DNA from: Gnetum montanum | Lineage: Eukaryota > Plantae > Gnetophyta | Direction: 5' to 3' | Length of the DNA: 64,000 nt | NCBI GenBank assembly: GCA_015680685.1 | Contig: MNCI01000651.1 | Coordinates: 1,727,832 to 1,791,831, forward strand | Shown: in pieces, positions 15,374 to 62,978 of the stretch | Position numbering within the stretch: the stretch's first letter is position 1 | How the letters are laid out: the number at the start of each line of letters is the position of its first letter | Made by a program: the position numbers and the translations under genes | Notes under the pieces: model-generated | Told to the model about the DNA's origin: nothing | The model's input: the letters and a program-made list of their open reading frames with translations, nothing else | Database searches by the model: none

Positions 15374-16462
15374 TGTTGACCTTTTATTATGTCAAAACCT
15401 TAAGGAAAATGGAGAACATAGGATGTTTATGTGCTATTGTGTTTATAGGGTAGGATTGTGTGTGGACAAGGACTTCATAGAGACATCATCAAGAACTTAA
15501 ATTGAGAGAAGAAGGTGTATGGAAGTTCAAGAACATCGATAAGAAATGTAGATTTCAATAGACAAAGTGAATTGAAGAAATACATCTCCAAGAAATATAA
15601 GATAGCATGACAAAGTTAAAGGTAGCATAGAAGAAGACATCCTTGGAAAACAAAAGGTGTCACTTGGGATAGAAAGACATCTTTCATGTGAAGAAGTTGT
15701 CTTTATAGAATGAAGGTCAAATGCAAAAAGACATCTTTCCAAAATGAAGGTCAATTACAGAAAGATGTCTCAATCTTGGGAAAGATGTCTCTAGTGAGTG
15801 TTAGTTAGTTGTTACATGAATTTTGAGGTGACTTCGAAAACATATTAGCTATAAGAAGACTTCATTCCCATTAGGAAATGTGCAAGCTTTGGTACTATCA
15901 ATTGTAAATCGTCTAACAATCATTGTAATCATTATTTTTTCTCATTGTACAATATTTTGTCTATTGTAATTGGTCAAAGTGAGTTGTGCCTTAAAGTACA
16001 AGGATTAGAAGAGTTAGTTGCATGCATTTCTTATAATTTTTTCTCTTTTATTACCCTGTGGGGTTGATGTTCTTCTTATAGGAAGGCATCATTCTTAAGC
16101 TTGTTGTGATCATATGGGATTGAGTTTTGCTATAGCGTAAGAATACTTCTGAGTTGAGCTCAAGTTGTAAAGGTTGTGGGATCCTAGAAACCATATTCTA
16201 AGCTTTTTGGAACCTTGTATGTTTGATAGTTATCATAGCAATGAAAATATCCTTAGTGAAGCTTAAACTTAGGAAAGGTTGTGGTTCCCCTCTAAATCAC
16301 ATTTTTGAAGGAACAAATTTTGGAGGTGTCCAAGCAATCTACCCTCAGAGTATGGACTACCTAATTTGGGGAACCACATTAATATTAGTTGTGTTCTTTG
16401 TGTTGGATAATTTTTAATTTGAATAACTTATTCATCCCCCCTTCTAAGTTCAATGATCCTCA
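15374..16462 (+). repeat. 5' LTR of SIRE-1
   Basis: TGTTGACC...CCTCA; homologous to the other four copia LTRs; followed by a Met-i type PBS. Confidence 0.85.
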
Positions 16463-16919
16463 AGTGCTATTAGAGCCTGGTACTCTTGCGCTTTTCATTA
16501 ATCTCCAAGAGTGAACAATGAAAGGGGCTATCAGTACTAGACATAATTTGTCAAGGAGACTGATTCTCTTTAGCAACTATTGTATTCAATTTTTGTATCA
16601 CATCTGTTAGAAATAAAAGTTTCTACTCTTGAAAGATTAATAGTGATTGTGATATTGAAGAAAGGTATGGATATTTTGTAATGAGATTCTTTCTTTCCAA
16701 AATCTATGTATTGAAATAAAAGACTCTTTACATGTCAAGAAAATGAAAATTAAAGTTATGGATGAGGAATGTTCTTATCTCAAAAAGGAAAATTCAGACC
16801 TTAGGGTTGAGACTCAAAAACTAAAAAATGTAATTGAGCAAATGACCAATAACTCTATGGAGAAGTCTAAAGACCAAAAATAGCATTTATCTAGGTTTGG
16901 TAAATCTTCTAAACCAAAA

Positions 16920-18370
16920 ACCTTGAAATGCTTCTTTTGTGGTAAATATGACCACATTCAAGCCTTTTTTCTATCTTAGATTACATCACTACTCTTGGTC
17001 TTCGCAAAAGAATCCTAGAATGGGAACCATGCAGGGTTGGAAAAGAAAAGAAGGAAAGTTTGAGAAGAAATTGATGGCTCAAATTACTCTATCCAATGAA
17101 AAATCAAGCATGTGGTATATTGATAGTGGGTGTTCAAGGCACATGACAAGTAAAAAATCCTACTTCATGGAATAAAATTATCGAATAGTCATGTTTGGAG
17201 ACAATATGGAACCACCTATAATAGGTATTTTTACCATAGGAGGTAAAGGTAAGTGATTACCAACTATAAACAAAGTGTTTTTCATTGATGAATTAAAACA
17301 TAATCTTCTTAGTGGTAGTTAGCTTTGTGATTCAAATTTTAATGTTGCTTTTTCAAAAGAAAATTGTAGAATATAAGATTTATCTATTGGAAACATTGTA
17401 ATAGAAGCAACTAGAAAAGAAAATGTGTATACCACTATTTTTGGAAATTGTACAATCCTTGAATTCAGGTGCTTAGTAAGTCATGTAGATGATACATGTC
17501 TTTGGCATATGAAGCTAGGCCACATAAATAAGGAAATTCTTCAAACCTTGGTATCAAGGGAAATGGTTTGCGACCTCCCCAAGCTCAAATATTTCAACCT
17601 AAATACATGTGAAGCTTGTCAGAAAGGGAAAAAATGAGGGTAAGATTTGGTAAATGTATTTTTACTACTTGTCCCTTAGATCTACTTCATTTGGATGTGG
17701 TTGGTCTAATTCAAACACTTATTTTGGGAAAGAAAAGATATTTTTTGATCATTGTTGATGATTATTCATGCTTTAATTGGGTTGCATTTTTATATCACAA
17801 AGATGAGGTATTTGATCATTTTTTGAGAATTAGCAATCAAATCTAGAAAAAAAATGATATGGTATTAAAGTTATCAGAAGAAACAATGGAGGCAAGTTCA
17901 AAAATGCAAGGTTTGAATAGTTTTGTCAAATGAATGATATTCTTCATCAATTATCTATTGTAAGAACTCCTAAACAAAATGGGGTAGCTAAATGAAGAAA
18001 CATAATCTTAAATGAGATGGAAAGAACCATATTAAATGATCAAAGTCTTCCTCATCACTTCTGGGCTGAAGCCATCAACACTACTTGTTATGTATCCAAC
18101 AAAGTCTTGGTAAGAAGATTCACTTCTAAAAATCCTTATGAATTGTGGATTGGTAGAAAACCATCAATAGCTTATTTTTCATGTTTTTGGTTCAAAATGC
18201 TATATTCTAAATGATAAAGATAACTTGAGAAGATTTGATGCAAAAATTAATGAATGAATTTTTAAAAGGATATTCTCTAGTTAGCAAGGCTTATAGAGTG
18301 TTTAATAAAAGGATGAATGCTGTAGAAGAAACCATAAATGTTAAAATAGATGATCATGATATTACTTGTT
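16920..18370 (+). pseudogene. pol: copia knuckle, protease, GAG-pre-integrase and integrase remnant
   Basis: WYIDSGCSRHMT, LWHMKLGHIN, CEACQKGK, LDLLHLDVVG, IVDDYSCFNWV, FWAEAINTTCYV, GYSLVSKAYRVFN. Confidence 0.92.
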
Positions 18371-18379
18371 CTCAAGGTC

Positions 18380-21109
18380 TTGGGTCATTTAGAAGGCTTG
18401 CTCCAAGGCTTGGGGCATTCTTGTAGGTTGTGGTATTTCATTGATGGTTGTGAAGGATGTTGAATAGCTTGGGAATGTGCAATTGGCATTAGCATATATG
18501 AGAGAGTTTGTGTGACCACCATCATAGGAGGGTTAAATAGGGAGAATGAGGTTTGAGTTGACACATGAGGGATAAAGAAAACAAACAAAGTGTAAGAAGC
18601 TTGTGAAGTTTGTTTTCTTGAAGAGGGGCTTGCAGGTATGATGAAAGGATGGGATGTGATAGATACCATAGGTAATGATCATACTAAATGAGGTTGTGTT
18701 ACAAAATGCATTAATGTAAATAATGAGATAGAGTGAAAAACTTGTTGAAACTAGTGTGTTATTACAAAAGATGTTAAGGTGATCATAGATGTAAATAAGA
18801 AGGTAGGTTGAAGAATTTGATCTATAGAGGAGATAGGAGGTTTAGAGTTGGAAATGGTATTCTCAAGAACCAAACGTTGTCAGAGGTTCCCTATGAATGT
18901 GTTTGGTTCATACATTGCTTCAACTCATCTTATTCCTTTTGATTTTTCTCTAAGATATTTTCTTTACTTACTTCCTCCATTTCTACTAGTTGTGCTAGCA
19001 TCGTGTATGAAAATATGTTATCTTGATATGGTCATAAGGGGAGGGGATATATTCCTTCTTGTTTTTGTGAATAATTTCAAATCACCATTTATACTTCGAT
19101 TCTATGCATGAGATGAAAAGGCCAACTTGAATCTTAGCATGAATGAAGTTATAATTATCTTTATTTATTTTTGTATAAGATGGGTTCAATCCCATCCATC
19201 AGAGCGATTTCCTACATTTTACCACATCAAGATCCTTGGGATCATAGATATAGACAAATTCTTGGTTGGAGGCCATGTGTGTTATGTTCTGAGATAAAAT
19301 TGTGAAATGATGAAAAGGCATAAAAGTTATAAGGAAAATGTGTGAAATCTCAACTCGTGAGAAACCCCAACATATAAGTTAACTTGTGGAAATCTCAACT
19401 TGTGAAAAATCCCAACATATAAGCTAACTTATGGAAATATCAACTTGTGATAAATTCTAACATATAAGCTAATTTATGGAAATCTCAACTTGTAAGAAAT
19501 CCCAACGTATAAGCTAACTTATGGAAATATCAACTTATAAGAAATTCCAACATATAAGTTAACTTGTGGGATCTCAACTTGTGAGAAATCTCAAAGTATA
19601 ATTTAAATTATAAGATTTCTAGTTTATTAAGATGCCAACGTATTAAGAGTTTCAACTTATGAAACTCTAATGTATTAACTACAACTACAATGGAAAACTG
19701 AAAATTTTTTTAAATTTTTTAAAACATATTTAACTAATCCTATGAGAAATATTAATAGGTTTCAATGTATATGATATTTCCAAAATAAAAATTGGTAGCT
19801 TGCAAGTACATAAACAAACAAGATAATATGCACTCTAACCATAAATATGAAAAAAATTGTAAGCATATGAATAGGGGTAACACTACATATTGCAATAATA
19901 GAAATTGAAATTAAGTTTTTTGGTTACTAATGTGCGGGGCCAAAGTAGCAGAGTGCACTATAATGGTCAAAAATCAATTTTTCTTTGGATTTCTAGGTGT
20001 AGGTTATTAAGGTAGAGCTATGTGTTATACTGCAAAAAGTAGTGATGGAAAATTTTGTTTGTTGCTAAAAAATGGTCGTAGTTCTACATGTTAGGCTTTG
20101 AAAAAAACCTTTTCATAGTAGATACTAGTAAATGTGTTTTGGTCTAAGAAGTTAGGTGGAGGCCCTCCTTCTAGCATTAGAAACTGTAGTGATGGAAAAA
20201 TTCGGTGCTGGAAGACAAAAAATTCTTGTATGAAATAGGTTAACCTTGGAACCAATGAGCCTTGGAAAAGATCCAGAGTATCTGAAAAGGTCTTGCTAAT
20301 CACTTGATAACTTGGAGGATCTGTTATTGGAATGAAATTACAATAAAAATAAAAAAGAAAATGCAGAAATACTAGAACCTGTGCTGAAATGTAGTTGTAG
20401 AAAATAATGAGTAAATGAACAAAAATTCTACAAAATATTTGTATGAATGCTATGAAAATATAAGGTTCAAAGAGTATACAATTTGGAACTAAAATTTTTC
20501 CACAACTCCTTAAAAATGGTGGTGAAAATATAATTTATGGATGGGTAGTGTGTGTCTTGTAGTCCTTCCACATATGCCTATTTCATTCATTCTACAACAA
20601 GATCTCGGTGCTTCTAGTGATCTACTCTTAAAGATGTTACAAATTCTTAGATCTTCCTCTCTCTCAAAAGTATTATGTTAGAAAGAATTGCAAAAATTAA
20701 AAAGTCCTTAAATTGAAGCAAAGTTTAGTTTAAATAGGCTATGGATATCTTGATTTATTGCTAGTAAATTTTTCCATGATTGCTACCAAAGTTTTGACAA
20801 ATTATGAACATTTTGAAAGATTTTGGTAGCCAAAATCTATAACATATGATGCACAAATGTTTTAAATATTTTGAGCATGCAATACCAATGTATTTGGCAC
20901 TTGGAGCCTATTAATCACTAACGTTTTTGACTTTTCTTGCCAAATTTGATAGCATATTTGGGCTATTTTCATAGCTCTAACTTCAACTTATGTGCCACCA
21001 ATATTTTTGGGTTTTGCTACTAAATTTTGGCATTGTATTTACATTTTAGGCTCCATAAGTTAGCTTAAATGAAATTCTAGCATTGTGGGCTGTAAATTTC
21101 ATGTTTACA
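18380..21109 (-). mobile_element. Tat-3: 5' LTR (20185-~21109), PBS, leader with tandem array and a degenerate gag 5' end
   Basis: PBS CCCTCCTTCTAGCATTA at 20163-20179; LTR start homologous to 4273-4390; minus-strand TATA-like at ~20730; Pro/Ser-rich minus ORF 18385-18669. Confidence 0.6.
19344..19612 (+). repeat. 45-bp tandem repeat, ~6 copies, decaying to ~19680
   Basis: Unit GAAATCTCAACTTGTGAGAAATCCCAACATATAAGCTAACTTATG starting at 19344, 19389, 19434, 19479, 19524 and 19569. Confidence 0.92.
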
Positions 21110-22763
21110 CATGAAGAAATGTCCAAAATTTTGCAAAAATATGGGAAAATAGGTAGTTTTTTCTAACTTTAAATTCCCATAAAATTACAATGTGAATTAT
21201 TGGTTTTTATACTTTTTATATAAAATGTAAAATCAATTTGGGATGTTTCAAGTAGGATCTTTATTGTACTCTTTAGTTAATTCTCTTTTACATAGCTTTT
21301 TCTCTTCTTTTACTACTTGGTCTAGTAACTATTGAATTTGATGGGCCATCATCTTAGACAATCTTCCTTGGGTATATCCTCAAAGGATGTCTTTTATTTT
21401 ATTTTTCAACCCATCAAAGATATGCCACAATTGTTTCCTTTGAGAAAATCCATGGCTTGGGCATATATGGAGTAGTGAATAATATCTATTCATTACTGCA
21501 TTAAAGTATACAGGTGTCCCTTATTTTCATCCTTGGATTTGTTTTGTTATGTTTGATGCTCTAGAATAGGTTTGATTCATATCATTGAAAAGCTCTAGCA
21601 TAGTACTTCATCTTCTAATAGATTCTAGTTTGAAGAATCTATATAAACTTTTTTCTTCTTTTATGAATGTTCTAGAAAATAATTTTAATTTTTTCCAATT
21701 ATTCTCTATGTTCTATAAAGCATACACATCATGGAAATCTTCAATTTCAATTATATCATTCTTTAAATTTTGAAATGTTATTCATATCAAGTTTCTTAAT
21801 GTGATTGTCCCTTAGGTGCTTGGTAGATATGTACATTTCTCTGATGTTGATCATGCTTTAAGTGGCTAATATAAGTTCTTCATAATCTTCGAATTCATAC
21901 TCTTTTTTGTAATGATGACTCCTTCAATGTTCATAATGTTATCTTCTCTCATGTATTAATTCTCTTTCTTTATTTTTTCATCATTAGAATATCTCCTTCA
22001 TGTTTTGTATCTATCATGATCCTTTCTCATTTCCCTATTATTATTCCTTAATCTTCATCCTCCCTTAGTACATTCTATTAATGAGTGTGATGAAGAGGAT
22101 GGAGGACTTGGAGAATAATAATGGTTGGTTCTCCATCTGTGACTTCTCCATTCATCTCTTTTAGTTTTGTTAGAGGTCTTAGGCATTAAATTCCTCCTAA
22201 GTTTAGAGTCTACATCATTCTTTCTAGGAGTTTCTACAAGATTTGAATGTAAATTTATCTTCATAGGATGTTCAATACATAGAATAGGTGACTAAGAACC
22301 AGATCTATAAGAATGATAAGAATTTTTAGCTTTATGTGACACATATTTCTTTTTTGTAAGGATAATTTTTAGTGATGATTCTTTCCTTTTACTTATTCAT
22401 ATCTTACCAACATGACAGCATCTCTTCTTACTTGAGCATTTAATGATTGATATGGCTTGTTCATGTTGTTAGTAACTTATTCCCTTTGTGTGCATGGCTA
22501 GGATTTGATCTCAATAGAGCTGCTTTGAACATAGATGGTGCTGAGCTTTCTAGTGGAAAAACCATTTTGCCTTGTAACTCTTTCCATCTGAACTGTTCAT
22601 CCTAGTAGAAAATGAATGTGAAATCAAGATAATAAGGATCAACATGAGCATATGATATTCTTTCTTATGTTAGTCCACTCTAATTTTCTTCATTATAATT
22701 CCTATTATTACTTTTATGAAGATCAATAGTAGATGAATATTTCACTTTAGGTATAGAAGCCAT
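21110..22763 (-). pseudogene. gag: Athila gag remnant of element C
   Basis: Hand translation YYSLLHICPSHGFSQRKQLWHIFDGL (~21410-21490) matches element A YYTLLHRCSGHGYTKQDQLRHIVDGL; the MAS start at 22763 parallels 62837. Confidence 0.8.
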
Positions 22764-23326
22764 TTTAAAAAATCTATTAATTCTCAAGTATGTATGTCTT
22801 AGAAATAATTTTAAGTATAAAAGACAAGTTTTATAATATTTTATATAACCAATTGTGATAAGATCAACTAACTAGCAAACATTGACACATCCTCGATAGT
22901 GGCATGAATGATGAGTGGTAGAGAATTCCAACACTTAACAATATAATTCACAAGTATTCATGTGTGATTAGATCATAATCCATGGATGGATAATATAAAT
23001 ATACAAGTGAATTAATAAGAAGTTTGTCATTGTTATCTTCTCACTAAGGTGCAAAATGTATGGTTTAACTCTTACTGAGATACATGATAAATATGATGTT
23101 TTTGGCTCTTGAGTGTGCTAAGGATAAATATAATGAGAGTTATTATAAATTCTATTTATAAGTACAATGGAAATGTAAACCTACTCTAGTCTATCAAAGA
23201 TAAGTGTCCATTCCTGATTTTCCATTCACATCCTAGGCTAATGTAATGGTTACTAGGATTACCAAGTAACTTTACCATTGAGAAAATCAACTAAAGTTAC
23301 TAATAGATTATCAAATAATTATACTT

Positions 23327-24417
23327 TCCAGATCAAGAACATAGAAGGTAAGTTAAATAAGTTTCCTAGTTAAAATTGAACTAGCCACATGAACACACCA
23401 AATTTTATGTGGTTCACTAACTTGGGTACATCCACACTCAGAGGGTAGAATCTATGCACACCTTTGAACTTTGTTTCTTTGCAAATGTGGTTTGAAGGAC
23501 ACCACATCCTATACAATCTTTGAGATCTGCTTTAGAGTGTTTCATTATTGCAAAACCACTCAACCCTATTAGGTCCCAACAAGCTTAGAATGTGGTTTCA
23601 AGGATCCCACAACCTTTACACGATTAAGCTCTGCTTTGAAGTGTTTTGACATTGTAAAACCACTCAATCCCACATGATCCTAACAAGCTTAATATGAATG
23701 TCTTCTCACAAGAAGCACATCAGCCCCATAGGGCTACAAGAAAGAAAGAGAAAAGAAAAAGGAAAGAATGTAACTAAATTTATAGGTCCTTGTACTTGAA
23801 GATTAGTACAAATTATAATCAAGTTAATGATGTTATAATGAGGAGCAAGAATAGAATTACATAGAATGGACAATGATAGATCTTTTTTTTTGAACAAACG
23901 CTTGCATAATTTCCAAGATTTGATATTATCTTATAGCCTTGAAGTTTTTGAAAACTTCTTAGAATTTATGCAACAACTACCAAAAGGCTAGTGTAGACAT
24001 CTACTTTGAAATTAGAATGTAACTGAGATTGGCCTTGATGCAAGTGAGCTGTCTTTTTGGCAGGTGGGACGTTTACAGTGGGATGTCTATAGTGAGATGC
24101 CTATTGTTAGAGTTAGAGTTTTGCTATTTTTCTAAGATGTTTTCTCATCTTTTAAACTTTAACTTCTAAGGCTTTTTCCTATTAATTTTCCTTCTTAGTA
24201 GTCCTTGGAGAATCTTCATTTGATCTGTAAACTTCATTTTCATCCATGCTCTCATGTTACCCATATTTTCATTTCAACATTTTGTCATAGATCTCATTTC
24301 CTTGAGTTCTCAAATCTCATTGTGGAATTTTTGTTCATGTCTAAAAAATCATCATACATCACAAACATTCTATATCCTTAATGTTCCTTAAGGTTTTTCC
24401 ATACCAAAATTTCAATA
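23327..24417 (-). repeat. 3' LTR of SIRE-2
   Basis: Direct repeat of 28537-29548; internal ~105-bp dimer at 23486-23690. Confidence 0.9.
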
Positions 24418-24649
24418 ATTCCCCCTTTTTGATGATGTGCAAAACTTAAGAAAATTGGTTATTATGGCTCATAAAAAATTTAAAATAATAGTTTTCTCCT
24501 CCTTTTTGGACATAACCAGAAAGGGTTAGAAAAAATCCCATAAAATATATGTAAGGTAAAGAAAGAATAATAAGAATTGTATGTATGTATGTATATGAAA
24601 ATCTAGAGTAGCTATGTATTATTTGCAATAATAGGTAAAAACCTTACTT

Positions 24650-27600
24650 GATAGGATAAGGTCTTATCTACATGTCTTTATAGAGAACAGTAAGTCACCA
24701 TTCATCAAGAGGTTTGGTAAAAGCATGTGCAAGTTGATTTTTTGTTCCAATGAATTCTAGTTTTACATGTCCAAGTTGAGTCTGTTTTTGTATAAAGTGA
24801 TGATGAATTTTGATCTATTTTGTACAAGAATGTTGGATAGGATTCTTGTTCATATTGATGGCATTACTGTTGTCATAATAAATTGGTGTAGATTGGAGTT
24901 TTACCCCTAAATATTTAAGTGTTTAATTCATCCATATAATTTGTGCATAACAACTTCCAGCTAAAATGTACTTAGCTTCTATCATAGAGAGTGCTTTAGA
25001 AGATTTCATTTTCATTGGCCAAGAGATAAGACTCTTTCCTAGGAAAAAGTAATTTTCACTTGTGCTTCTACAATCATCTAAATAACTTGTCCAATCTACA
25101 TCATAATATCCAACAAGATTAAGTGGGGAATCATTTCGATACCAAAGTTTCCAATTAGCAATACCGTTTAGATAATGAAAAATATGTTTAATAGCTTTTA
25201 AATGGGATTCTTTAGGATTTGCCTGATATCTTGGAAAAATTCCTATACTTAATGCTATATCTGGTATAGTCATAGTTAAACAAAGTAGGCTACCTATCAT
25301 ACCTCTATAAAGCTTGAGATCAATAGGTTTTCTTGATCATCTTTAGTGAGCTTAAAGTTTTCTGCCATAGGAGTGTTTTTTACCTTTACTTTTGTCAAGT
25401 TGAATTTGAGTAGTAGATCCTTGATATACTTAGTTTGACAAATAAAGGTTTTTTTTTTGTCTAATTGCTTTGAAAACCAAGAAAGTTGTTAAGCTCTTCC
25501 ATTATGCTCATTTCAAATTCTGATTGCATAAGATCTAAAAAAGTCTACATAGAATATCATTATTTTCATCAAAGATAATATTATCAACATAGATTTGAAG
25601 AATAAGTAAACCATTAAATTATCACTTGAAAAATAAAGTGACATTAGCCCTACCTCTTTCAAAGCCACTAGATGTAAGGTGTTGGGAAAGTCTTTCATAC
25701 CAAGCTCTAGGAGCTTATTTGAGCTCATAGAGAGCCTTCTTGAGATGATCAGGATTACTAGGATCTATAAATCCTTCAAGTTGTTCAACATATATCTCTT
25801 CTTAAATGGTCCCATTTAGAAAGGCACTTTTCACATCCATTTGATATAGCTTGATGTTTTCAGTGCTAGCATATGCCAAAAGAAGTCTAACAAATTCAAG
25901 TCTTGCAACAAGAGAAAACATTTCCTCAAAGTCAATTCCTTCTTGTTGATTATATCCTATTGCAACTAGTCTAGCTATATATTTAATGATATTCCCATTT
26001 TCATCTATTTTATTCCTAAAAACCTAGTTCGTGCTAATAATTGGTTTATGATTTGGCTTAGGTGTCAATTCCCATACATCATTCCTACTGAATTGATTAT
26101 GTTCATCTTGCATAGTAGAAATCCATTCTTCTTCTTCTTCTTCTACTTCTTTGAAGTTATTGGATTCTAGTTGTGAAAAATACTAAGTATAAGCACAAAT
26201 TTTCTTAGTTTGGCTTCTAGTGCTAATTCCATCTTGTACATGTCCAATTACATCATTAAGAGAGTGTTTTCTACTAAGTCTAGGTATTTTAGGTAGAATT
26301 AATGATATGTCCTCATTTTTATTCTAATTCTCTTCCTCATGTTTACTATCTACTTCTGAATTTTTATCAATTTGAACTTGGAAGGTACTAGATAATTTTT
26401 GAATGTAAACTACTTCATAGTCAAATTATGGAGAAGTAATGTCACTATAATCAAATTTAACATTTATAATTTCTTCTACAACAGTTGTTCTTTTTTTGAA
26501 GACTCTATATGCTCTACTAAGAGAAGAATATCCTAAGAAAATTCATTCATCAGTTTTAGGATCAATTTTTCTTGAGACATATTTATCATTAGGAATATAG
26601 CATTTAGAACCAAAAACATAAAAATAACCAATGAAAGGTTTTATACCAGTCCATAATTCATAGGGAGTTTGGTAAATTTGCTTACCAAAACTTTGTTGGA
26701 GACATAGCATGCAGTGTTAATTGCTTTAGCCTAAAAAGGGTAAGGGAGATTTTTTTCATTCAATATGGTTCTCTCCATTTCATTCAAGATCCTATTCTTT
26801 CTTTAGGCTACACCATTTTGGTAAGGAGTCCTTGAAGTAGAGAATTTATGAATAATGTCATTCATTTGATAATATTTTTCAAATTTAGCATTTTTGAATT
26901 CTACTCCATTTTCACTCCTGATGAATTTGATACCATAGCCTTTTTCTTTCTGAATTTGATTACAAATTCTTGAGAAATGATCAAATACTTCATCCTTGTG
27001 ATATAAAAATGCAACCCAAGTAAAATGAGAGTAGTCATCAAAAATGGTTAGAAAACACATTTTCTTTCTCAAACTAAGTGTTTGAGAAGGACCAACTAGA
27101 TTCATGTGAAGTAAATATAAGGAATGAGAGGTAGAGATGTAGTTTTTCTTACAAAACCTTACCCTTATTTGCTTTTCCTTTTGTCATGCTTCACAAGTGT
27201 TCAAATTGAATTCTTTGAGTTTGAGCAATCCAAAAATCATTTTCTTTGTCACCAAAGTATGAATAATTTCATTGTTTATGTGGCCCAACTTCCTATCACA
27301 TACAAGCATCATATATATTATTGATCAAGCACTTGGATTGTAGGTTAGAGTTGTCTTCAAATACACTGTTGTAAACATTTGCCTTTCTAACTCCTTCTAT
27401 AATAATGATTCTAGAGGTTAAATCTTTTATTCTCCAAGTTTCTTTTGAGAAAGTAACATCAAAATTTAAATCACAAAGTTAACTAACATTGAGAAGATTA
27501 TGCTTTAAACCTTTAACAGAGAGAATTTTATTTACAGTAGGTTGTCCCTTACATTTCCCTCCTATGGTACCAATACCTATTATAGGAACTTCCATGCCAT

Positions 27601-27900
27601 CCTCAAATGTGATGGTTCCATAATTTGGTTATGAAAAATGTATGAATTAGGATTTATCTCTTGTCATATGTCTTGAATAATTTCTATCAATATACCATGT
27701 GCTTCTTTTGACTACAAAGAAAGCAACTTGAGCCATCATGTTTTGTTTGGGTTTCCTCTCTTTTTACTTCCAAACTTTCCTTCCCTACAAAGCATCTTGT
27801 CTAGGCTAGTTTTGAAAAGACCAAGTGTAATGTTTCATCCAAAGATATCAATAAGCCTAAAAATGTCCAAATTTTCCATAATAAAAATAATTTAAAGTCT
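24650..27900 (-). pseudogene. pol: copia pol (PR-INT-RT-RNase H), disrupted
   Basis: WYIDRNYSRHMT (~27665-27700); integrase ORF 26803-27105; RT QMDVKSAFLNG (~25815-25845); ORF 24923-25300 MIGSLLCLT...YQANPKESHL. Confidence 0.93.
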
Positions 27901-28536
27901 TAAATCTTATTATATTACCAAACCTAGAATCACTTCCTTCTAAATAAACTTTGATGTATGCATCTTTTTGCTCTTGGTCTTTGGGATTTTCTAAAAATTT
28001 CTTATTCATCTACTCAATTACCTTCATTAGTATTTAAATCTTAAATGTTAGGTCTGATTTTTCTTTCTTAATATAGGAACATTCATCATTGAGAGTTGCA
28101 ATCTTTGTCTCTTTGTCATGTAATATTTCTTTCATTTTAAAGCATAGACTTTGAAAAGAAATAATTTCATTGCAAAGAAACTTATACATTTATTTTAAGG
28201 AGTTTTCATCTTGTTTATGATAACATCTATGATTATTTGGAATTCTTTTCTTGTCCAAATTTTCATAGATATTATTGGACCTACACTTATAGTCTCTTTT
28301 GGAGGCCATATGGTCTCTTCTATTACATATTTAACTAAAGGTAGATGAGTGAATAAAAATATTACCTTTACTAATGCAGAAAAGTAATTGAATACAACTC
28401 TTAAAGAAGAAATTGATGAAGAATATCAGTCTATTTGTCCAATTGAATTTAATAGCTACTGATGATTTGATGTTAGTTGCCCCATCCATGTTTGCATTGA
28501 GTTATCTATGTGAGATTACTGAGCTTTGATACCACA

Positions 28537-29548
28537 TGAAGATTGAGAGCTTAGAAGGAGGGTTGAATAGGTTTCCCAATTAAAATTACACTAGCCACAT
28601 GAGCACACCAAATTTTACTTGGTTTTCTAACTTGGATATGTCCACATTTAGAGGGTAGAAACTACGCACACCTTCAAACTTTGTTTCTTCGAAAATGTGA
28701 TTTGAAGGTAACCACACAATGTAGAAGCTTTGAGCTCTTCTCTAGAGTGTTTCATCACTACAAAAAAACTCAATCTTAAAAGGTCATAGTAAGCTAAGTA
28801 TGTGATTTCAAGGATCCCACAACCTTTAAAAAATTGAGCTCCAGTCCAGAGTGTTTTGATGCCATAAACTCACTCAATCCTATAGGATCTTGACAAGCTT
28901 AACATGGATGTCTTCTCACAAGAATCACATCAATCCTATAGGGCTACAAGAAAGAGAGAGAAAAGAACAAGGAAAAAATGTAATTAAATTTATATGTCCT
29001 TGTACTTGAAGCTCAATAAAAATTACAATCAAGCCAATGATGTTTCAATGAGGAGCAAGAATAGAATTGCATAGAATAGACAATGGTAGATTTTTTATGA
29101 ATAGATACTTGCACAATTACCAATACTTTGACATCATCTTATAGCCTTGGAGTTTTTAAAAACTCAGAATTCTTACAATGGCTACCAAATAGCTAGTGTA
29201 GACATCTACTTCAAAATTGGGATGTATAACTGGGGATTCCCTTGATGCAGGTGAGACATCTTTCTAGTAGGTGGGATGTATATAGTGAGACATCTATTGT
29301 TGGAGATAAATGTATGGTATTTTTTTAAACATGTCTCCTCATCTTTAAAATTTTATCTTATGAGGCTTTCTTCTTTAAATTTGTAGAAGTCCTTTGAGCA
29401 TCTTCATTTGACTTGTAGACTTTATTTTCATCCATGCTCTCATCTTGCACATGTCATTTTCATTTTGACATGTTGTCATAGATCTCATTTCCTTGAGTTC
29501 TTAGATATAATTGTGAAGTTCTTGTTCATGTCCTGCAAAATCATCATC
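28537..29548 (-). repeat. 5' LTR of SIRE-2
   Basis: TG...CA termini; adjacent PBS; followed by the TSD. Confidence 0.9.
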
Positions 29549-30042
29549 CACCACAGACATTCTAAATTCTCCATTTTCCTTAAGGTTTTGACATACCAAA
29601 GGTGAACATACTTTAACATACTTTATGCTTTAAACAAATCATACTTATTCTACTTTTACTAATGAACATGATAATGGTAAATGACATGAAAAAATGTAAA
29701 TGATATTAGAAAGTAAATCTATTTTATATGAGATGCTACAATGATGAAGAAAAATATCAATATTTATTATCATTTATGAATTATTTCTAAGAATAATCCA
29801 CTCGACTAAAGATATAATGCAACTGTAATTCATCATACTACAGGCATTCATAGTTAACTCTAACTTCAAGAAAACAAACTATAGGAATTTTGCTAAGTTC
29901 TGGTAAAACATCATTCATTAACATAATGGTGGCTTAAATTGATAGGAATGACCATGACCCGCTATATCATATCTATGGCATTGTATACTAAGCTACGATA
30001 TCACATCTATAATATCATAGTTTCCTATAAAATATGTCATCA

Positions 30043-32940: not shown

Positions 32941-34883
32941 TTATTAAATGAATCCCTGCAACCATCCTATGTGTAGGATCTAGACATATCCCCTTTCTAT
33001 GGTATAGCATTATCCTTATGATTGGTGTCGTAGAGATGTCATACCATACTCCTATTTTTGCACTTTTTTCTCCCCACTTTTCTTCTTGTAGGAACATTAA
33101 TCATCCTTCCATTCTCTTCTTTATGGATCCTCCTTTAGTACCCCCAATAGCATCCATTAAGAGGAGGCAATGTTATACCCACTTTTTCAGTTCATCATAG
33201 ATCAAGACTAAGTATCATCTTGACATTGTTCCATGTAGGTTGTAGCATCAAACATCCTAAATACATAATCATGAGGCATATACTTAGCTCCTAAAAATCT
33301 CTAAGGATCATTTGAATTTATAATATGGCTTATGAACATCATTGTTCATACTCTAGAAAAACTACAAAATCAAAAGTTTTCTAAGCGTTGGAGGTGATGT
33401 GCATTTTTAGTTAATCTCTCTTGGACACTAAAAGATAAAAAATCCCAAAAAAACTTTATAAGATATCTATTTTTAGAGATCACTAGTGATTATTTGGGAT
33501 CATATTTCAATATTTGGATCTTAATTTTGATGATTTTGGAAAATGTCATGAAAATGTATAAAAACGTTTTCTAAATTAGAATTAAAATTGTAGGTCTATA
33601 AATAAAAGTTCAAAATGAAATTGTATTGGTTGGTTTTTTTTAATATTTAAGAGTACTTGTTAGATTTCAAAAGATTAAAAGTATGAGCACCTACCATCAT
33701 TGTAGCACTTGCATGCTCCAGGACCACCTTAGTGTCACTTTTAGAGATAGAATTTTAAGGATTCTATAGCACATTCCAAAGTTGAAAAATTTTAGCTCTA
33801 GTATTAGTAATGGGACCCTTAGACAAAATAGCCCTATTCTAGCCTAAAATTGATTTGGGATCATATTTACAACTTTCCCATCCACATCTTAATCCTCCAA
33901 AGGTCCAATTCCATTCTTAAAATCCATATTTCTCTCAAGATTCAAACTTTTATAATTAGCTCCGAATCACTTTCATTTTTTATTTATCACTTGTAGTTTT
34001 GACCCTCCATAGGAGATGAATACTTTGTTTCTCATTAATGAGGTATTTTATTATTTGAAAAGGGATGCGAGATACTTTCTCCCATATCATAGTCTTAATA
34101 TTTTAATATTTTATGCTTTTATAATTAGATTTAATTCTTAGTTTTTATTCTATCGCTCATAGTCTATTCCTTAGTGTATTCTTTGGCAGTTTATACTTAA
34201 TCATTTTTAGTGATTTACGCTTATTATTTTTAGCATTAAAATTTTACTTTTCCATAATTTTACTGCCATTATAAGTTTGTGTGTGATAGGCTGAGTTTAT
34301 ATTTAATTAGAGGTACTTTATCCCTTCATTTTATAATTATTGATATATTAAATATTACATCAATTTAAAGACCATTTATAATACACTATGTGTTTTTCCA
34401 ATTGATCCATGGAGGTTTCCTTATAGGAGTGTGAAGAATATTTCTATAGGAACAGTTGGAAAGTCCCAAGATATCAAGTAGAAGATGGTAAAATCTTTAA
34501 TATTCATAGTCACATATTTTTAGTGGTTATTCCAAAAGATATACATATCACTAAAGTATCATTCTTCATTAGTTGATATGATGGACCATAGTGGTAATTC
34601 TTATAGTTGTTCTTGGATCTCCTAGGAAGTGAACTCCATGAAGGATCCAAAGTTTGACTCTTATAGGATAAAGCTATGGATTTTCTTCTTATCGTCTTTA
34701 TGTAGAACTTTGTTAATGTGACTTCTAGGCTTCATCTAGGTCTAGGAATTTTTTCCTACTTATAATCTTCTATTTTTGTAGTGGTAATCTACCTAATAGA
34801 TTCCACTTTGGGCTCTATGGGCCTAGTTTTGTGTATGACTTATTTTCCTAGTCTTGGTTACCAACATCTTTGTTTGCATCCTA

Positions 34884-35971
34884 TGTGGGCTAAGAACTTA
34901 GAAGGGGGGTTGAATAAGTTCCCTAATTAAAAATGCACTAGCCTTAAAAAGATACCAATTCTACATGGTTCTCCAACTTGGGTACATCTACACTTGGAGG
35001 GCAGAATCCATGCACACCTCCAGACTTTGTTTCTTCAAAAATGTGGTTTGAAGGGCATGACTTCTTATATAAGCTTTAAGCTCTGCTTTGGAATGTTTCA
35101 TTGCTGTGAAACCACTAAACCTTGCAAGGTCTCAACAAGCTCAAAATGTGATTTAGAGGATCCCCTAACCTTTACAAAATTGAGCTTCAATTTAAAGTGT
35201 TTTGACAGTACAAAACTACTCAATCCCTCATGATCCTGACAAGCTCAATAATGATGTCTTCTCACAAGAAGCACATCAACCTTGTAGGGCTACAAGAAAG
35301 AATGAAAAGAAAAAGGAAATAGTGTAACAAAATTTATAGATCCTTGTACTTACGGCTTAGTAGAATCACAATCAAGAAAATTATATTACAATGAAGAGCA
35401 ATAATAAAATTGCTTAGAATAGGCAATGATAGAACTTTGTGTGAATAGTGCTTGCATAATTCCCAAGAATTTGACATTATCTTATAGCCTTGAAGTTTTC
35501 AAAAATTCCTCAAATTTCATGCAATAGCTACCAAATGGCTAGTGTAGATGTCTGCTTTGAAGTTTATATGTCTATTTAAGATAGCCCTCAATGAAGAAGA
35601 GATGTCTACTTGAAAGTGAGAGGTCTATTGTGAAAATCTTACCATAGACATATACTATGAAATATAGATGTATGTTATTTTCTAAAGACATCTACTCCAC
35701 TTTTATACTTTTAAGTCTAAGATATTCTCTTATCAATTGTCTTCTTGGAAGTCCTTGGAATACCTTAGTTTGATTTGTAGACTCCATTTTCATCCATGAT
35801 CTCATCTTGCCCATGTAGTCTTTGTTTTGACATGTTGACATAGATCTCATTTTCTTGAATTCTCATATCTTTTTGTGAAGTTCTTGTTCATGCCTTGAAA
35901 AATCACAATCACACACACACATTCTATATTCTCAATTTTTATAAAGGTTTTGATATAACAAAAGGTCAACA
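34884..35971 (-). repeat. 3' LTR of SIRE-3
   Basis: TG...CA termini; direct repeat of 39248-40333. Confidence 0.9.
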
Positions 35972-37519
35972 ATCACCTCCTTTTTGGTGATGCTCAAAAC
36001 TTAAGAAAATGGGATAGTATATTCCAAAAATTTATTGAGCTAGGTATGATGAGATATGAATGACTATGAAAATATGCATCCTTAATTCAACACAAATCCA
36101 TCAATCATAAGGAGATACATGTGAACTTTGAATAAAGCCATTTATGATAAAAGGCTAAGCAATGAAGATTTATTATCTTGTCTCTATACCATTCACTATA
36201 CAGAAAGCATTAATAAGCATCGATAATATCATAAGGTCATAATTGTTCAAGATATTCACGAGTTATTATTATCATTCAATGTCCATGTTTCACATGACTC
36301 TTTATATCAGAATTATGTCACAAGTTACAAAATTCTCACCCTTTTTAGACATCAAAAAGTAACTTGGGCCTTACTACAAACAATTAGAATAAAAGATTAA
36401 AAATAAGAGAGATCAAAAGATTGTTAAAGATAACATCAAGAAACATTATAAAATATTCATCTAAGCTAAAGCTCTTAGATTTTTCTCATCACATTTTCAT
36501 ATTTAAAAGATAGACATAGTAATTTCATGTCAAGGAGAATAAGTATATATACATCCAACTTTTAAGCTATAGATTAAATTCTAGAAATAGATCGAGAGAT
36601 CAAACAAAGAAAATTGTAAGAAAGATGTTCATAAAGTAGTATTCATGTATATCTCAAGGAAGCTTAAAATATCTCACAACTGATTTTCAAAATTTCCTAA
36701 GAAGCTTTATCACAGAAAAGTGTTAGTACCTTTTCTTACACTAGTATGCTTGAGATGTCCTACGTAAGAATTGTTTAGCTCATATCAACATTAAGGGACT
36801 TAAATACTTAAAAGAATACATTCTTAGTACATATGAGATGCAACATAAATATCTTATCATAGTGATATAACAAATGAATTCTCAAATCTTGCCCAATTGA
36901 AGAATTTAGATAAAATATTTTTAAGAACTTGTTCTTTTACCTTCAATTTTTTTCTAGATGAATATGATTTTTGTTACCTATTAGAGGTTGGTCATCTCTT
37001 GAAGAAAATCTTCCATAGACTCCCCTTACATTGATGCTCCAAAATATTTTATGAGGAGCAAGCTCTCCCTACATGTGTGCCTTAGCTTCTTAATTCATTA
37101 GTTGTGAGGAGAATGTCAATATCCCCTTTGACTCTTTTAAGATTTGCATGGTACTTGATTAAAATCTTGATTTTTCAAGAATATAGAATAAACTAGAAAT
37201 GTTTATAGAAAAACATTAATGCTTATAGTAAAGAAAATTAGTAGGTACAAATCATAATAATCTTTAATTTTTGTATTACTTAATCATCCAATCATGGCTC
37301 ATCTTGTCATTTTACTTCAAGGGTATCTGCAATGGTAGTCTAATTATCTCTCATGATCATCAAAGAAAATATATCTTGATCATCCAATGTATGATATTGT
37401 AGAAAAGGATTTCAAATAAAAATCAAGGTAGTCTAATTATCTCTCATGTTCTATATTATCTCTCATGATCTCTTTTGTTATGATCTCTCATGATCTCTTT
37501 TGTTAGTGTCCTCAATCTT

Positions 37520-39191
37520 GTATGGGATGCCTTCTTGTCTAGATTCATGGTCCTCAAGATAGGAGGATTCATAATTTTTTATAGTTAATGGTTTGGATTC
37601 GTTCAATATTTTTGAAGTTTCTTTAGCTTTTTTTTTCATTCATTTTCTATCCTACAAGATACACTCACTAGATTCCTTTTAACAAGACCAAGTATTTACT
37701 TTATTTTTTTCTATGTGAAGATTATAATAATATTTTTTATGACCACAATTTTTACAAGAATATAAAGTGTTTCTTACATGAATAGGATCATCAAACTTAA
37801 TTTCATTTGAGACTGAACTAGTGCAAGTATCCTTTTAAGAGGTTTCTTCCAAGCTTTCACTTTCATGCTAATTTTTAGTCTTTTCCTTATTTTCACTGAT
37901 CCTTTCTTCTTGATTATCCCTGCATTTCTTTTCATTTGAAGGGGTTAGTAGTTGAATCTTAGCTTTTATGTCTAAGATTTCCATTTTTAACTTGTAGGAT
38001 AAGGTATAAATTTTAGAAATTTTCTTTGCATATTTTTCTTTACCTTTTTTAATAGATAATGTAAGATAAAAATTTCTTCATGTAACTCATTGTACCTTTC
38101 ATCATGTTTACCTATTAATTAATTAGATATTTTTTATGAATCTTCATTTGTGAAGACCATACATATGAGATGTGAGTCTTTCGTAGTGTCATCAACCTCT
38201 TTTTCACTTTGTTCTTCATCATCCTAGCTAGTGTAGAAGTTTGACGTTTTTGTATCTACAATCTTATCTCTTCATTGCAACTTGGTAGTGCTAGGACATT
38301 TAGATGCCACATGGCCTCTTCCACAACATACCCAACATTCTATGGAAAATGTATCAAAATTTAAATTTTTAGGATTTTTACCTTTTTCCTTAACTTTGGA
38401 TTGATTTGGTCCTAGATGGTTGAAGCTTCTTCCTTTCCTTGCAAGGAGTCTTTGAACTCTACTTGATAGAAGAGTTATTTCATCTTCATTATTCATTTCT
38501 TATTCAACTTGCTTCTTTTATTTTGATGCTAATTTTAGAGCAATATATTTTTCCTTAATTGCTCCTTTACTTATGAGATTCATCTCATAAGCAGTTAGAG
38601 CACTTTGAAGCTCTTCAATTTAAGGATGGAAAAATCTCTGATTTCTTCAATACCTATGATATTAGGTCTGAACTTGGGTTGTAGTGTTCTAATCATTTTT
38701 ATAATTACATCACTTTCAGGAAAGTCCTTGCCTATATCCCTAATTGCTATAATAAGATCATTTTCCCTAGAAAAATAATCCTTAATCATTTTACCTTTCT
38801 TCATTTTAAGTTATTCATATTCACTTTGCAAAAATAACAATTTTGATTATTTAACTATAGATGTTCCCTCATAGATAGCCTCTAAGCTTTTCCATATTTC
38901 CTTAGTAATATTACATCTAGTTATTCTATTAAATTCAAATTTATTTGATGCACAATATAAACAATTTTTGGCTTTAGAATCATGCATAAACTTATATTTT
39001 TCTTTAGTTGTCCATTTGTTCTATGACTTGAGAACTTTTTAGGTGTTGTCAATAGGTGGTGTCTAAACTTCAAGGATTGAGATACATTCTTCGAATTCCA
39101 TGAAATCAAAGAAGCCTTGCATCCTTACCTTTCAATATGAAAATTCAAACCCATCAAACATCAACGTCTTTATATAGGAAGTCCCCTCCAT
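37520..39191 (-). pseudogene. gag: full-length Sirevirus-type gag (UBN2-like capsid, CCHC knuckle, coiled-coil extension, degenerate second knuckle)
   Basis: MEGTSYIKTLMFDG start; KEIWKSLEAIYEGTSIVK; MKKGKMIKDYFSR...IRTLQPKF; CWVCCGRGHVASKC; YSCKNCGH at ~37750. Confidence 0.88.
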
Positions 39192-39247
39192 AATTCAGTC
39201 TTGAAAGTTGAAGCATAAACTTGAGAGTACTAGGATTTGATACCACT

Positions 39248-40333
39248 TGTGAATGGGGAACTTAGAAGGGATGTTGAAGAAGTTTCCTAATTTAAAATGA
39301 ACCAGCCATAAAAACACACCAATATTATGTGGTTATGAAACTTGGGTATGTCCACACTTGTTGGGTAGAATCTGTGCACACCTTTGAACTTTGTTTCTTC
39401 AAAAATGTGGTTTGAAGGACACCACTCCATGTAGAAGCTTTAAGCTCTACTTTGGAGTGTTTCATCATTGTGAAACTAGTCAACCTCGTAAGGTCTTGAC
39501 AAGCTTAAAATGTTGTTTAGAGGATTCCCCAACCTTTATAAAATTGAGCTCTACTCTAGAATGTTTTGACATCATAAAACCACTCAATCCTAAAGGATCC
39601 TAACAAGATCAACAAGAATGTCTTCTAGCAAGAAGCACATCAACCCCATAGGGCAGCAAGAAAGAAAAAAAAGAACAAGGAAAGAATGTAACTAAAGTTA
39701 TAGATCCTTGTAGTTTAAGCTCAATACAATCACAATCAAGAAAATGATGTTACATTGCAAAGCAAGAAAAAATTTTCTTAGAATAGCCAATGATACAACT
39801 TTATGTGAACAGTTCTCACACAATCCCAAATATTTTGACATTGTCTTTTAGCCTCAGAGTTTCCAAAAACTCCTCAAAATTCATGTAACAACTACCAAAT
39901 GGCTAGTGCATATGTCTACTTCGAATTTTAGACAACTATCTGAGATAGCCCTCAATGTAGGAGAGACGTCTAGCTAAAAAGTGAGATGTCTATTGTGAGA
40001 GGCCAAGGATGTTTACTATGGAAGATAGATGTCTACTATTTTTTGAAGATGTTTACTCCACTTTTAAACTTTGAATTCTAAGGTATTTTCTAATCAATTT
40101 ATATTCTTGAAAGTCCTTGAAATACGTTAGTTTGATTTGTAGACTCCATTTTCATCCATGCTATCATCTTGCCCATGTAGTCTTAGTTTTAACATCTTGA
40201 CATAGATCTCATTTCCTTAAATTCTTAGATCTTTTTGTGAAGTTCTTGTTCATGCCATACAAAATCAAAATCACACACATACATTCTATATTCTTCATTT
40301 TCCTCAAGGTTTTGACATATCGAAGGGTTAACA
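39248..40333 (-). repeat. 5' LTR of SIRE-3
   Basis: TG...CA termini; adjacent PBS; followed by the TSD. Confidence 0.9.
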
Positions 40334-41169
40334 TCCTATTCTTGATTATTTTTTCCCTTCTTTGGAAAAGAAGACTCACCTCTGAATATCTTTTGAATGC
40401 CATTTGCAATCACATGAATGATCATTCATTATTTCTTAGTTACTATATTTAGATATTATTATCTTTGATTGTCCTTGAGTTTTTTCTTAAATTTGAAAAA
40501 ATATGTGTTAATGCCTCTAAGTGATTGCAATCTATGATCTTGGAGATTCTAAGATAGTTAATTATTCTTAAATTATCATTATTTCAATCATTACTAATGT
40601 TCACTACCTTAGTCATTTAGAATTTGGGAGGTTTTTTAAAGTATTTAAAATCATAGGTATCTTTCTTCCATAATGTAGATCTTAACTTTGATAGCTCATA
40701 GGTCTTTGAATAGCTTCGATTGGATGCTTGGTTCACAAGATATCAATTTTGGAAGGTCTCGGTTCTCTAAAACTATAAAATATCCTCCAGAAAAATGAGT
40801 GAAATATGATTAAGTATTGTGGTAATTTATAGTATTTTGGTCATGTGTTAATGTTGATGCATCGATGGGATTATAGTGGATAATTTTATTTTGTTTTCTT
40901 TGAAATTTCACTAATTCTTTGTAAATTCCTAGCCAAATGTAGGTTTGAATAAGAGTTGAAAGAACATTCAACATGTAAGAACACTATGGTTAAGTAGATG
41001 ACAAGTTAGGTAGATTAGCAAATCATAAGTCATAATTGTTGATGTGTTTAGCTGTTATTTTATGAACTATAGAGAAAATGAGAAAAATAGTGATGTAATT
41101 AATTAATGAAACTATTCTTAAATGACTAGGGTATGTGGAAGTTGTGCATAGACTAGATGTTTAAGAGTT

Positions 41170-43929: not shown

Positions 43930-44793
43930 TGATGAGCAGTAAGGTACCCCTACACTCAACCATATGAATACAAACATGTATGCATGATCTGGTCAAAATC
44001 TACAGACAGAATAGTTGTGGTATCTAGATAGTTACACGTTGATTGTAGTTCGCTATCTTCCCACTTGAACTAGTATTTGCTTTGTCACATATGGTTTAGT
44101 CTAAAGTGAGGTGAATAATGGGATCCTAAAATAATGCTACTCCTAGATACGATGGGAATAATCTTAATTAAGCTAATGAACAATGGAAAATGAAATCTAT
44201 GCTAACCCTAAGTGCAATGAGCATCTGTTCTTAATCATCCACACCCATCTTGAATCTCATGTACTACTTTTGGGATTACCAAGCACACATTACTTGAGCA
44301 CTTCTAGATACACTAGTGGGTTACCAAGTAGTTACACTTAAATGTTCATGATTATGTTGTACTCATTCCATGTTAATCAATAGGTAGTGTAAATGACAAT
44401 AAAGGAAATATGTACTAAAAAGACAATAATAAATAATTAACAATTAAAGTAATTAAAAGCTAAGTGAATGCTGCAATGATGGAGTAATATCAATCTTTAC
44501 TGTCAATCATGTGCGTGTCCAAGTATGTCACACTCGAACAAAGGTTTTGTACAATTACAATCATCACACTACGGGCATGCACTTGGGAAAGAATTGAAAT
44601 TAACTGAAAACTAACAAAAAGACTGTACCCTTAGACTTACCAACTCCCTCTCTTCCTATGTGCTTGAATGTTGTATTTACAGGCCTACAAAAGAATCAAA
44701 ATATCATGTATTCGATATCATTATCTAGGCTATGATATCGAGTACCTGATATCGAGGATCCAATATCTAGGCATGGCAAACCATAATTCATCA
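43930..44793 (-). repeat. 3' LTR of element B
   Basis: TGATGA...TCATCA; direct repeat of 52233-53104. Confidence 0.95.
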
Positions 44794-44897
44794 TACCCAC
44801 ACAACTGAATATTAACTTGTCCTCAAGTTAAACAAAATGAAAACGAGTTCAATTGATTACATAGTGGATAGGTATGAGATTATTGACTAACTAGGAA

Positions 44898-47783: not shown

Positions 47784-48284
47784 TTGCAATCACGCATGAT
47801 TGATTATTAGTAAGGTTATTTACAAAATTAGATTAATACCTTACTCCTTGCCCTTAATAGATTCATTTCTTTCTTAGTGTGATTCAGAGTTAGAGATTTT
47901 CATGAAAATTCCCTTAAAATTTTGATATTGGGCCCAATTTTGATTATTTGACTTCAAAAAATAATTTTCATGGTCTGGGTGAAGAAATAAAATTAATTTG
48001 GCAAAACTTTTTAGCATTTTTAAGGTCACTTACACTTTGATAATATTCTTCGGGCAACAAAAAATTTCAAAAAAACTACATGCAACTTGAAGTGTACCCT
48101 TCTTCCATGACCAAGTTAAATACTCTAGGTTTAAGTAAGTTCGATCGGAATAAGAATTGGAGCATTAATGAGCAAGTTATTGATGTTTGAATGATAGGAC
48201 TGCAAGCTATAAAATTTGTGGAAGAAAATTTCAACAACTCCCCTTGCATGAACAGTGAAAAATGACCTTGACGTGTGTAGGGGG

Positions 48285-60520: not shown

Positions 60521-60529
60521 AGTGTTAGG

Positions 60530-62977: not shown

Positions 62978-62978
62978 A

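Follow-up and report, generated by a model that had tools for sequence, protein, structure and literature searches.

A Sirevirus-type LTR retrotransposon family of Gnetum montanum with a gag-only and a capsid-less, pol-bearing form

The non-autonomous long terminal repeat (LTR) retrotransposons described in the literature surveyed lean on a complete or an unidentified partner. BARE-2, a Copia element with a disrupted gag and an intact pol, receives Gag in trans from the complete BARE-1, as told in PMC4350172 and PMC9744471. Gag-only elements that share the LTR, primer-binding site (PBS) and polypurine tract (PPT) of an enzyme provider have been proposed as Gag donors, including RLG_Quinta/RLG_Cereba and RLG_Sabrina/WHAM/Wilma in wheat, and TR-GAG in coffee and others (PMC11302176, PMC9744471, PMC4350172); no provider was found for TR-GAG1 (PMC4350172). 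In the mouse IAP element 1-delta-1, an internal deletion gives rise to a shortened Gag-Pol fusion, which is cis-acting and rides in the particles of others (PMC6466679). Trans-complementation is reported for cattle endogenous retroviruses (PMC10924933), and non-autonomous families, some without a traceable partner, for sugar beet (PMC13570524). Here, we describe three related LTR elements, E1, E2 and E3, in a 64,000-nucleotide stretch of Gnetum montanum DNA (the window; contig MNCI01000651.1, positions 1,727,832 to 1,791,831), where gag and pol lie in separate forms of one family. Each half has a known precedent, TR-GAG and Quinta for the one and BARE-2 and IAP 1-delta-1 for the other. Our literature search, which misses most subscription papers, found no description of a gag-only and gag-less pair without a complete partner. 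Maize Grande and Zeon-1 have reportedly been discussed as a complementary pair; the search found nothing to confirm this.

One LTR family in two forms

Self-comparison of the window identified five homologous LTRs of ~1.07-1.09 kb each within 15374-40333, a region of plant-type repetitive DNA with a GC content of ~30%. The LTRs delimit three elements, E1 (+, from 15374), E2 (-, 29608-23327) and E3 (-, 40333-34884), in agreement with the initial annotation, which had named them SIRE-1 to SIRE-3. E2 and E3 are flanked by perfect 5-bp target-site duplications (TSDs), AAGTA on both sides of E2 and TAGGA on both sides of E3, as had been claimed. The three elements belong to a single Sirevirus-type LTR family that occurs here in two forms: E3 has gag but lacks pol, and E2 and the truncated E1 carry pol behind a remnant of gag devoid of the capsid. 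When nine frames from the 5' regions of the elements were scanned, Pfam detected the Copia capsid domain PF14223 in one, which belongs to E3 (1.5e-16), and the protease PF22936 in E1 and E2 alone; this bears out the earlier report that E1 and E2 are missing the capsid core. E1 has 648 bp between the PBS and the protease motif and E2 has 837 bp, close to the first estimates of ~640 and ~830 bp.

The Pfam analysis of E2 detected a reverse transcriptase (RT; PF07727, 2.2e-43) at ~26083-25418 (-), together with integrase and SH3 domains. The RNase H region, where Pfam gave no match, was presumptively assigned from motifs recognised in the translation. In E1, the RT, 3' LTR and TSD were not found within the window, and the sequence ends at ~18367, at the end of the integrase. 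E1 is capsid-less, and with its truncation after the integrase it is at most a candidate for a complete pol-only element, as which it had initially been described. E3 was correctly described as having gag and no pol: no Pfam domain was found in the three forward frames of its 3' half, and a translated comparison of the E2 interior with the window found no pol in E3. The last ~36 nt of the E3 3' region are common to E2. All three elements are dead: their frames are broken and contain ~1-3 stops in every 100 codons (stops per codon: E2 coiled coil to protease, 10/297; E2 RT, 5/207; E3 gag, 6/196; E1 Gag tail, 1/99). The LTRs are depleted in CpG, with observed/expected ratios of 0.05-0.11.

The E3 gag frame seems to continue for ~150 charged residues past the eroded second zinc knuckle (37250-37700, -), with no Pfam match. 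This extension contains short repeats of 19 and 25 bp, and is possibly a tail resembling a domain of unknown function, as in Quinta. The first CCHC knuckle of E3 is intact and the second eroded, and E1 and E2 keep the second alone (16930-16970 in E1). The knuckles are possibly divided between the two forms; post-insertion decay could also explain the pattern.

E3 has the content of a TR-GAG (LTRs, PBS, PPT and gag alone) and works like one, though at 5450 bp it is not classed as such (<4 kb). E2 is gag-defective and pol-complete like BARE-2, whereas E1 is without RT through truncation. In contrast to BARE-2, ~790 nt comprising the capsid and first knuckle are deleted here, the Gag tail is selected, and the sole Gag source seen is a pol-less element. 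The enzyme providers of Quinta/Cereba and Sabrina/WHAM/Wilma encode their own Gag, whereas the LTR-matched provider in the window has no capsid; moreover, the wheat pairs are Ty3 elements and the present family is a Ty1/copia Sirevirus. The shortened Gag-Pol of IAP 1-delta-1 is a precedent for an E2 polyprotein, although the mouse element has lost a portion of gag and pol and depends on complete IAPs for both, while E2 keeps all of pol.

Family membership was assessed using the Sirevirus features given by Bousios et al. 2010 (PMC2829016). The LTR/PBS junction follows the Sirevirus form CA/A(T/G)TGG/TATCAGAGC, with two mismatches to the G variant in each of E1, E2 and E3. The terminal PPT (AGGGGGAG followed by AT/TG) and its upstream copies are present in decayed form: E3 ends in AGGAGGTG-AT-TG and has three upstream copies with one mismatch each, and E2 has one mismatch in the terminal PPT and one upstream copy. 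The inverted repeat at the PPT/3' LTR junction is present, its left arm beside the PPT being the reverse complement of LTR positions ~10-40; a script recovered it with 12 of 15 matches, at the expected place in E3 and elsewhere in E2 because the start of the E2 3' LTR is decayed. The C-rich integrase signal ~21 bp from the LTR end is intact in three of the five LTRs and eroded in two. The extended Gag, with a central CCHC followed by a predicted coiled coil, was found with both parts in E3 and as the retained tail in E1 and E2. No RM boxes or CpG islands were recognisable in the methylation-eroded LTRs, and a 104-bp tandem duplication in them is no RM box. The family thus resembles SIRE1, Opie, Ji/PREM-2 and Endovir, as that source describes them, in its PBS junction, PPT with AT/TG, multiple PPTs, PPT inverted repeat, C-rich signal and coiled-coil Gag. 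It differs from these elements in having its coding capacity split over two forms, and no env-like frame was recognised.

The 104-bp duplication lies in the 3' part of the LTR (23484-23691, and correspondingly in the other LTRs). Many loose contig ends fall on it, and the number or sequence of the units may vary within the family.

A search with the E2 RT (PF07727) gave 2639 matches among 6790 candidates, the best at 59% identity, against references without lineage labels. A HMMER profile of the E1/E2 leader matched 28 distant proteins, none of them a family member, mostly at the knuckle-to-protease junction; one of these, a Lotus protein, has a capsid region upstream of that junction. The matches fall at the coiled coil/knuckle/protease junction, and the part of gag that remains in E1 and E2 is therefore the C-terminal tail of a Sirevirus Gag. 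Word-seeded protein searches found no long relatives of the E2 leader among 770 candidates and no relatives of the E3 gag at 1e-8 among 438, a weak result in view of how decayed the copies are. Two scans of metagenome contigs for LTR motifs came back empty, and a protein atlas gave no result for the E1/E2 leader.

The capsid-less leader, its recurrence and its constraint

In DNA alignment, the E2 leader is collinear with the first ~340 nt past the E3 PBS, to just before the capsid core, and then with the start of the E3 coiled coil. The ~790 nt of gag that are missing relative to E3 comprise the capsid core, first knuckle and acidic stretch, and the remnant/coiled-coil junction of E2 lies near 28215 +/- 40. 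E1 leaves the collinearity with E3 ~150 nt earlier than E2, and rejoins it at about the same place. The alignments of the leaders to E3 are weak (p 0.003-0.02 against mononucleotide shuffles), and the 5' ones include the PBS.

The retained coiled coil and knuckle of E1 and E2 were rightly noted in the initial annotation, which also reported a gag-like start; this start appears only weakly gag-like in comparison with E3 (protein p=0.051 for E2 and 0.71 for E1; DNA p=0.003 with the PBS included). The remnants of E1 and E2 are alike (protein p=0.0005, DNA p=0.008). A gag N-terminal motif of the Lotus relative is shared with E3 (p=0.0005) and lost in E2 (0.20) and E1 (0.92), and tblastn with the Lotus protein P0023 gave no match to the E3 gag, despite the significant pairwise alignment of the N-termini. 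As the two remnants resemble each other and share the loss of this motif, the capsid was probably lost once, before the E1/E2 split, and pol and the Gag tail would have been kept functional afterwards. An open frame from the E1 ATG to the coiled coil was considered and is ruled out by seven stops in 53 codons.

The coiled coils of E1 and E2 are 50% identical, and that of E3 is barely alignable to them. None of six single-frame protein comparisons of the E1 and E2 coiled coils with that of E3 was significant (p 0.17-0.83); they are alike at the DNA level alone (p 0.02 and 0.003).

To address the recurrence of the leader in other copies, contigs mapped from four sequencing runs (X1, X5, X7 and X8) were analysed; the runs with matching DNA carry five species labels from three studies (9 of 12 rows). 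The contigs are short, and their depth gives no copy number and cannot rank the parts. The interval 27480-28620 was covered in 30 of 30 bins in each of the four runs. Inside the remnant, a difference at 28422 is shared by 42, 47, 36 and 22 contigs per run, and another at 28314 by 38, 40, 36 and 25. The remnant/coiled-coil junction is crossed, with 31 nt or more to either side, by at least four diverged contigs of single-copy depth (four among the 32 listed; Table 1). These come from three related species labels and are ~14-20% diverged from E2, except one with 12% and 23 gap positions; two of them, X1 rec 6 and X5 rec 16, possibly represent a single locus sampled twice. A further contig (X7 rec 24, 42 differences) joins LTR, PBS and remnant in one piece. 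Two others are most likely E2 itself (X1 rec 7, 0 differences) and an E2 orthologue (X8 rec 31, 7 differences). The remnant is not of one length in all copies, just as E1 and E2 differ in it: some contigs have joints that skip 76-135 nt within it.

No coiled coil continuing into other long sequence at the junction was found among the 32 pieces or 24 loose ends listed, and no E2-like coiled coil running into capsid sequence among the contigs listed. The capsid-less leader is an inherited, multi-copy architecture and no one-off deletion, since paralogous contigs bridge the same junction. The proposal that both architectures transposed as such is supported by these contigs and by the intact TSDs of E2 and E3. 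In each run, sites in the pol-less tail of E3 have coverage from 10-36 contigs.

Comparison of E1 with E2 shows purifying selection on the retained Gag tail and on pol. The ratio of non-synonymous to synonymous differences (pN/pS) was 0.41 for the coiled coil (interval 0.25-0.68; 67 ungapped codons), 0.37 for the knuckle (0.18-0.68; 26 codons), 0.41 for the linker, 0.51 for the protease, and 0.20 and 0.25 for the integrase blocks; the block INTa and pooled values were left out of the comparison. LTR pseudo-codons, used as a control, gave 0.69-1.25. The three codon positions of the retained tail are 77, 76 and 52% identical. The silent sites are nearly saturated (pS 0.45-0.80). Taken alone, the constraint on the tail could date from complete ancestors.

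The Kimura two-parameter (K2P) distance between the LTRs of one element is 0.223 in E2 and 0.217 in E3, corresponding to ~11% decay per LTR. The LTRs of E2 and E3 are 0.274-0.293 apart, ~0.06 beyond post-insertion decay, and those of E1 differ from the rest by 0.400-0.437. As the LTR pairs are equally diverged and E2 and E3 only ~0.06 further, both inserted at about the same time, from templates with similar LTRs. Constraint on the pol half and co-timed insertion, which the initial annotation had named as support for a bipartite family, were thus both observed. At a rate of 1.3e-8 (PMC9744471), the E2 and E3 insertions are about 8-9 million years old, an estimate inflated by the effect of methylation decay on K, and older in slower hosts. 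The LTRs group E2 with E3, and the coiled coil groups E2 with E1. LTR exchange between the two forms would be the likely explanation of this discordance; LTR transfer by template switching or gene conversion is described for Angela in section 3.2 of Wicker et al. (PMC9744471).

A proposed partnership of the two forms and alternative explanations

The reading that we favour, with a probability of roughly 55%, is that the two forms replicated as partners, the gag-only form building the particles and the capsid-less form supplying the Pol enzymes. The capsid would have been lost once, ahead of the E1/E2 divergence, and gag-only elements would have made the particles. The former gag ATG of the capsid-less element would have served as the start of a short Gag-tail-Pol polyprotein; this would have entered the particles through coiled-coil contact with full Gag, its second knuckle binding RNA. 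Both RNAs would have been co-packaged, and template switching would have kept the LTRs alike. Docking, translation from the old ATG and co-packaging are steps that we infer; coiled coils tend to pair unspecifically.

A further-reaching version is a segmented LTR retrotransposon, in which a Sirevirus family was split for millions of years into gag-only and capsid-less pol elements with no complete master and with the coiled coil as a handle for loading Pol; this we propose only tentatively, and consider it rather doubtful. If true, two mutually sustaining defective forms would parallel, among retroelements, a multipartite virus, the Gag:Pol ratio would be set by copy number with no need of frameshifting or splicing, and the autonomous/non-autonomous scheme of annotation pipelines would break. 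Even with a master, the selected coiled coil and second knuckle suggest a testable role for the poorly understood Gag extension of Sireviruses, namely recruiting Pol to the particle.

Several observations weigh against a partnership. The gap edges of E1 and E2 agree within ~20-40 nt at the 3' side and differ by ~150 nt at the 5' side, so that the similar aberrant leader reported initially holds for the degenerate start and the 3' edge and not for the 5' edge. As the leader-to-E3 alignments are weak, the junction is placed to +/- 40 nt alone, and with the difference at the 5' edge independent deletions in E1 and E2 are possible. The E1 remnant has no open frame, so that translation from the old ATG is traceable in E2 only. 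A bridge from the E3 gag to its tail was seen in 0 of the 32 pieces listed, so that the gag-only form is indicated to be a family just indirectly, through the TSD and the tail coverage; besides the 32 pieces and 24 loose-end rows listed for the leader, there are 8117 pieces and 1550 loose ends. One off-frame control of the coiled coil also had a pN/pS below 1 (0.58, interval to 1.03), the other frame giving 1.27. A third and complete master, tracked by both forms, would account for the discordance of LTR and coding sequence just as well. Finally, a complete partner is present in every published pair in the sources surveyed (Cereba/Quinta, Wilma/Sabrina/WHAM, BARE-1/BARE-2 and IAP/1-delta-1).

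These published pairs also favour a three-member system, in which a full-length Sirevirus outside the window, with the same LTR, mobilised the gag-only and capsid-less forms as satellites, the former in the manner of Quinta or TR-GAG and the latter in that of BARE-2, and the halves need not depend on each other. We regard this as a serious possibility, though short of probable. LTR transfer between partners is known for Angela (PMC9744471), the same window holds a textbook complete and gag-only Ty3 pair, and three copies are a tiny sample. However, complete gag-pol copies with this LTR account for none of the three elements in the window and were not seen among the contigs listed, where no E2-like coiled coil reaches a capsid either, and the capsid-less pol stayed constrained by purifying selection over the long E1-E2 divergence (pS 0.45-0.80). 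In all four runs, the summed depth of the gag-core bin exceeded that of the deepest pol bin by a factor of 3.9-5.1, which is a hint only, contig depth being no copy number.

An origin of the capsid-less form from a spliced pol mRNA of a normal Sirevirus, reverse-transcribed possibly repeatedly, with the junction marking the splice sites, is unlikely. Sireviruses have unusual gag/pol expression (PMC2829016), GT and AG dinucleotides lie near both inferred gap edges in E3, and alternative donors would be expected to leave the 3' edge constant and the 5' edge variable; E1, however, retains sequence upstream of the candidate acceptor, and the E1 and E2 remnants have drifted from gag alike, which would point to long capsid-less inheritance whatever the first event. 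Ordinary decay, with the missing parts lost from each copy after insertion, would suit the age of the copies (~11% per LTR; CpG observed/expected 0.05-0.11), the truncation of E1 and the small leader deletions that differ among contigs (joints skipping 76-135 nt), but is very improbable given the common architecture and degenerate start of E1 and E2, the 1.7-kb 3' region of E3, which is not pol-derived, and the paralogous contigs bridging the same junction, which largely refute it for E2.

Feature coordinates and neighbouring repeats

Table 1. Features of E1, E2 and E3 in the window, and contigs that bridge the remnant/coiled-coil junction.
Feature	Position	Strand	Remarks
E1 5' LTR	15374..16462	+	TG...CA ends, C-rich integrase signal; more diverged LTR subfamily, K2P 0.40-0.44 to other four LTRs
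E1 LTR/PBS junction	16463..16476	+	decayed Sirevirus type, CA/AGTGC/TATTAGAGC
E1 degenerate gag-start remnant from ATG	16518..16676	+	homologous to E2 remnant; 7 stops/53 codons, no open frame
E1 retained Gag C-terminal part	16677..16973	+	predicted coiled coil and second zinc knuckle; bZIP_1 E 0.006, below cut-off
E1 protease, GAG-pre-integrase, integrase/SH3	17113..18367	+	Pfam; element breaks off ~18367
E2 5' LTR	28537..29608	-	TSD AAGTA at 29609-29613
E2 LTR/PBS junction	28523..28536	-	CA/TGTGG/TATCAAAGC
E2 degenerate gag-start remnant	28215..28489	-	ATG 28489 in frame with coiled coil and protease, 2 stops/100 codons
E2 predicted coiled coil and decayed second knuckle	27850..28189	-	retained
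E2 pol: protease, integrase, RT, RNase H region (presumed)	24690..27697	-	stops and frame breaks throughout
E2 short linker	24418..24510	-	two PPT-like octamers (24503, 24426) and left arm of PPT inverted repeat
E2 3' LTR	23327..24417	-	TSD AAGTA at 23322-23326
E3 5' LTR	39248..40333	-	TSD TAGGA at 40334-40338
E3 LTR/PBS junction	39234..39247	-	CA/AGTGG/TATCAAATC
E3 gag	37700..39191	-	N-terminus, capsid core, two knuckles, acidic stretch, coiled coil; stops and frame breaks
E3 capsid core PF14223	~39029-38643	-	Pfam
E3 first CCHC knuckle	~38337-38296	-	intact; acidic stretch follows
E3 predicted coiled coil	~38090-37950	-	
E3 second knuckle	~37756-37715	-	eroded
E3 3' region without pol	35972..37699	-	four PPT-like octamers (37070, 37027, 36342, 35981)
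E3 3' LTR	34884..35971	-	TSD TAGGA at 34879-34883
Contig X1 rec 6	28130-28426		59 differences, 0 gaps; bridges junction
Contig X5 rec 15	28065-28375		36 differences, 23 gaps; bridges junction
Contig X5 rec 16	28151-28435		50 differences, 2 gaps; bridges junction
Contig X7 rec 22	28064-28326		36 differences, 0 gaps; bridges junction

The Ty3 pair comprises a complete element at 53877-63899 (-), with gag, protease, RT (PF00078), RNase H (PF17917) and integrase and an LTR-pair K2P of 0.093, and a related element at 43930-53104 (-), in which gag is present (PF03732 at 51087-51698), pol was not seen, a long 3' frame at ~47500-45000 is decayed and the LTR-pair K2P is 0.138. We take the complete element to be Athila-like from its motifs. 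The two share ~95 bp of LTR end and PBS (80%) and 44% gag identity, and make a textbook example of an autonomous element with a gag-only companion. A third Ty3 gag, a fragment at 21251-22661 (-), is related to these two (37-51% identity). Between E1 and E2, a 45-bp tandem array of 5.8 copies with 85% matches was identified at 19344-19601.

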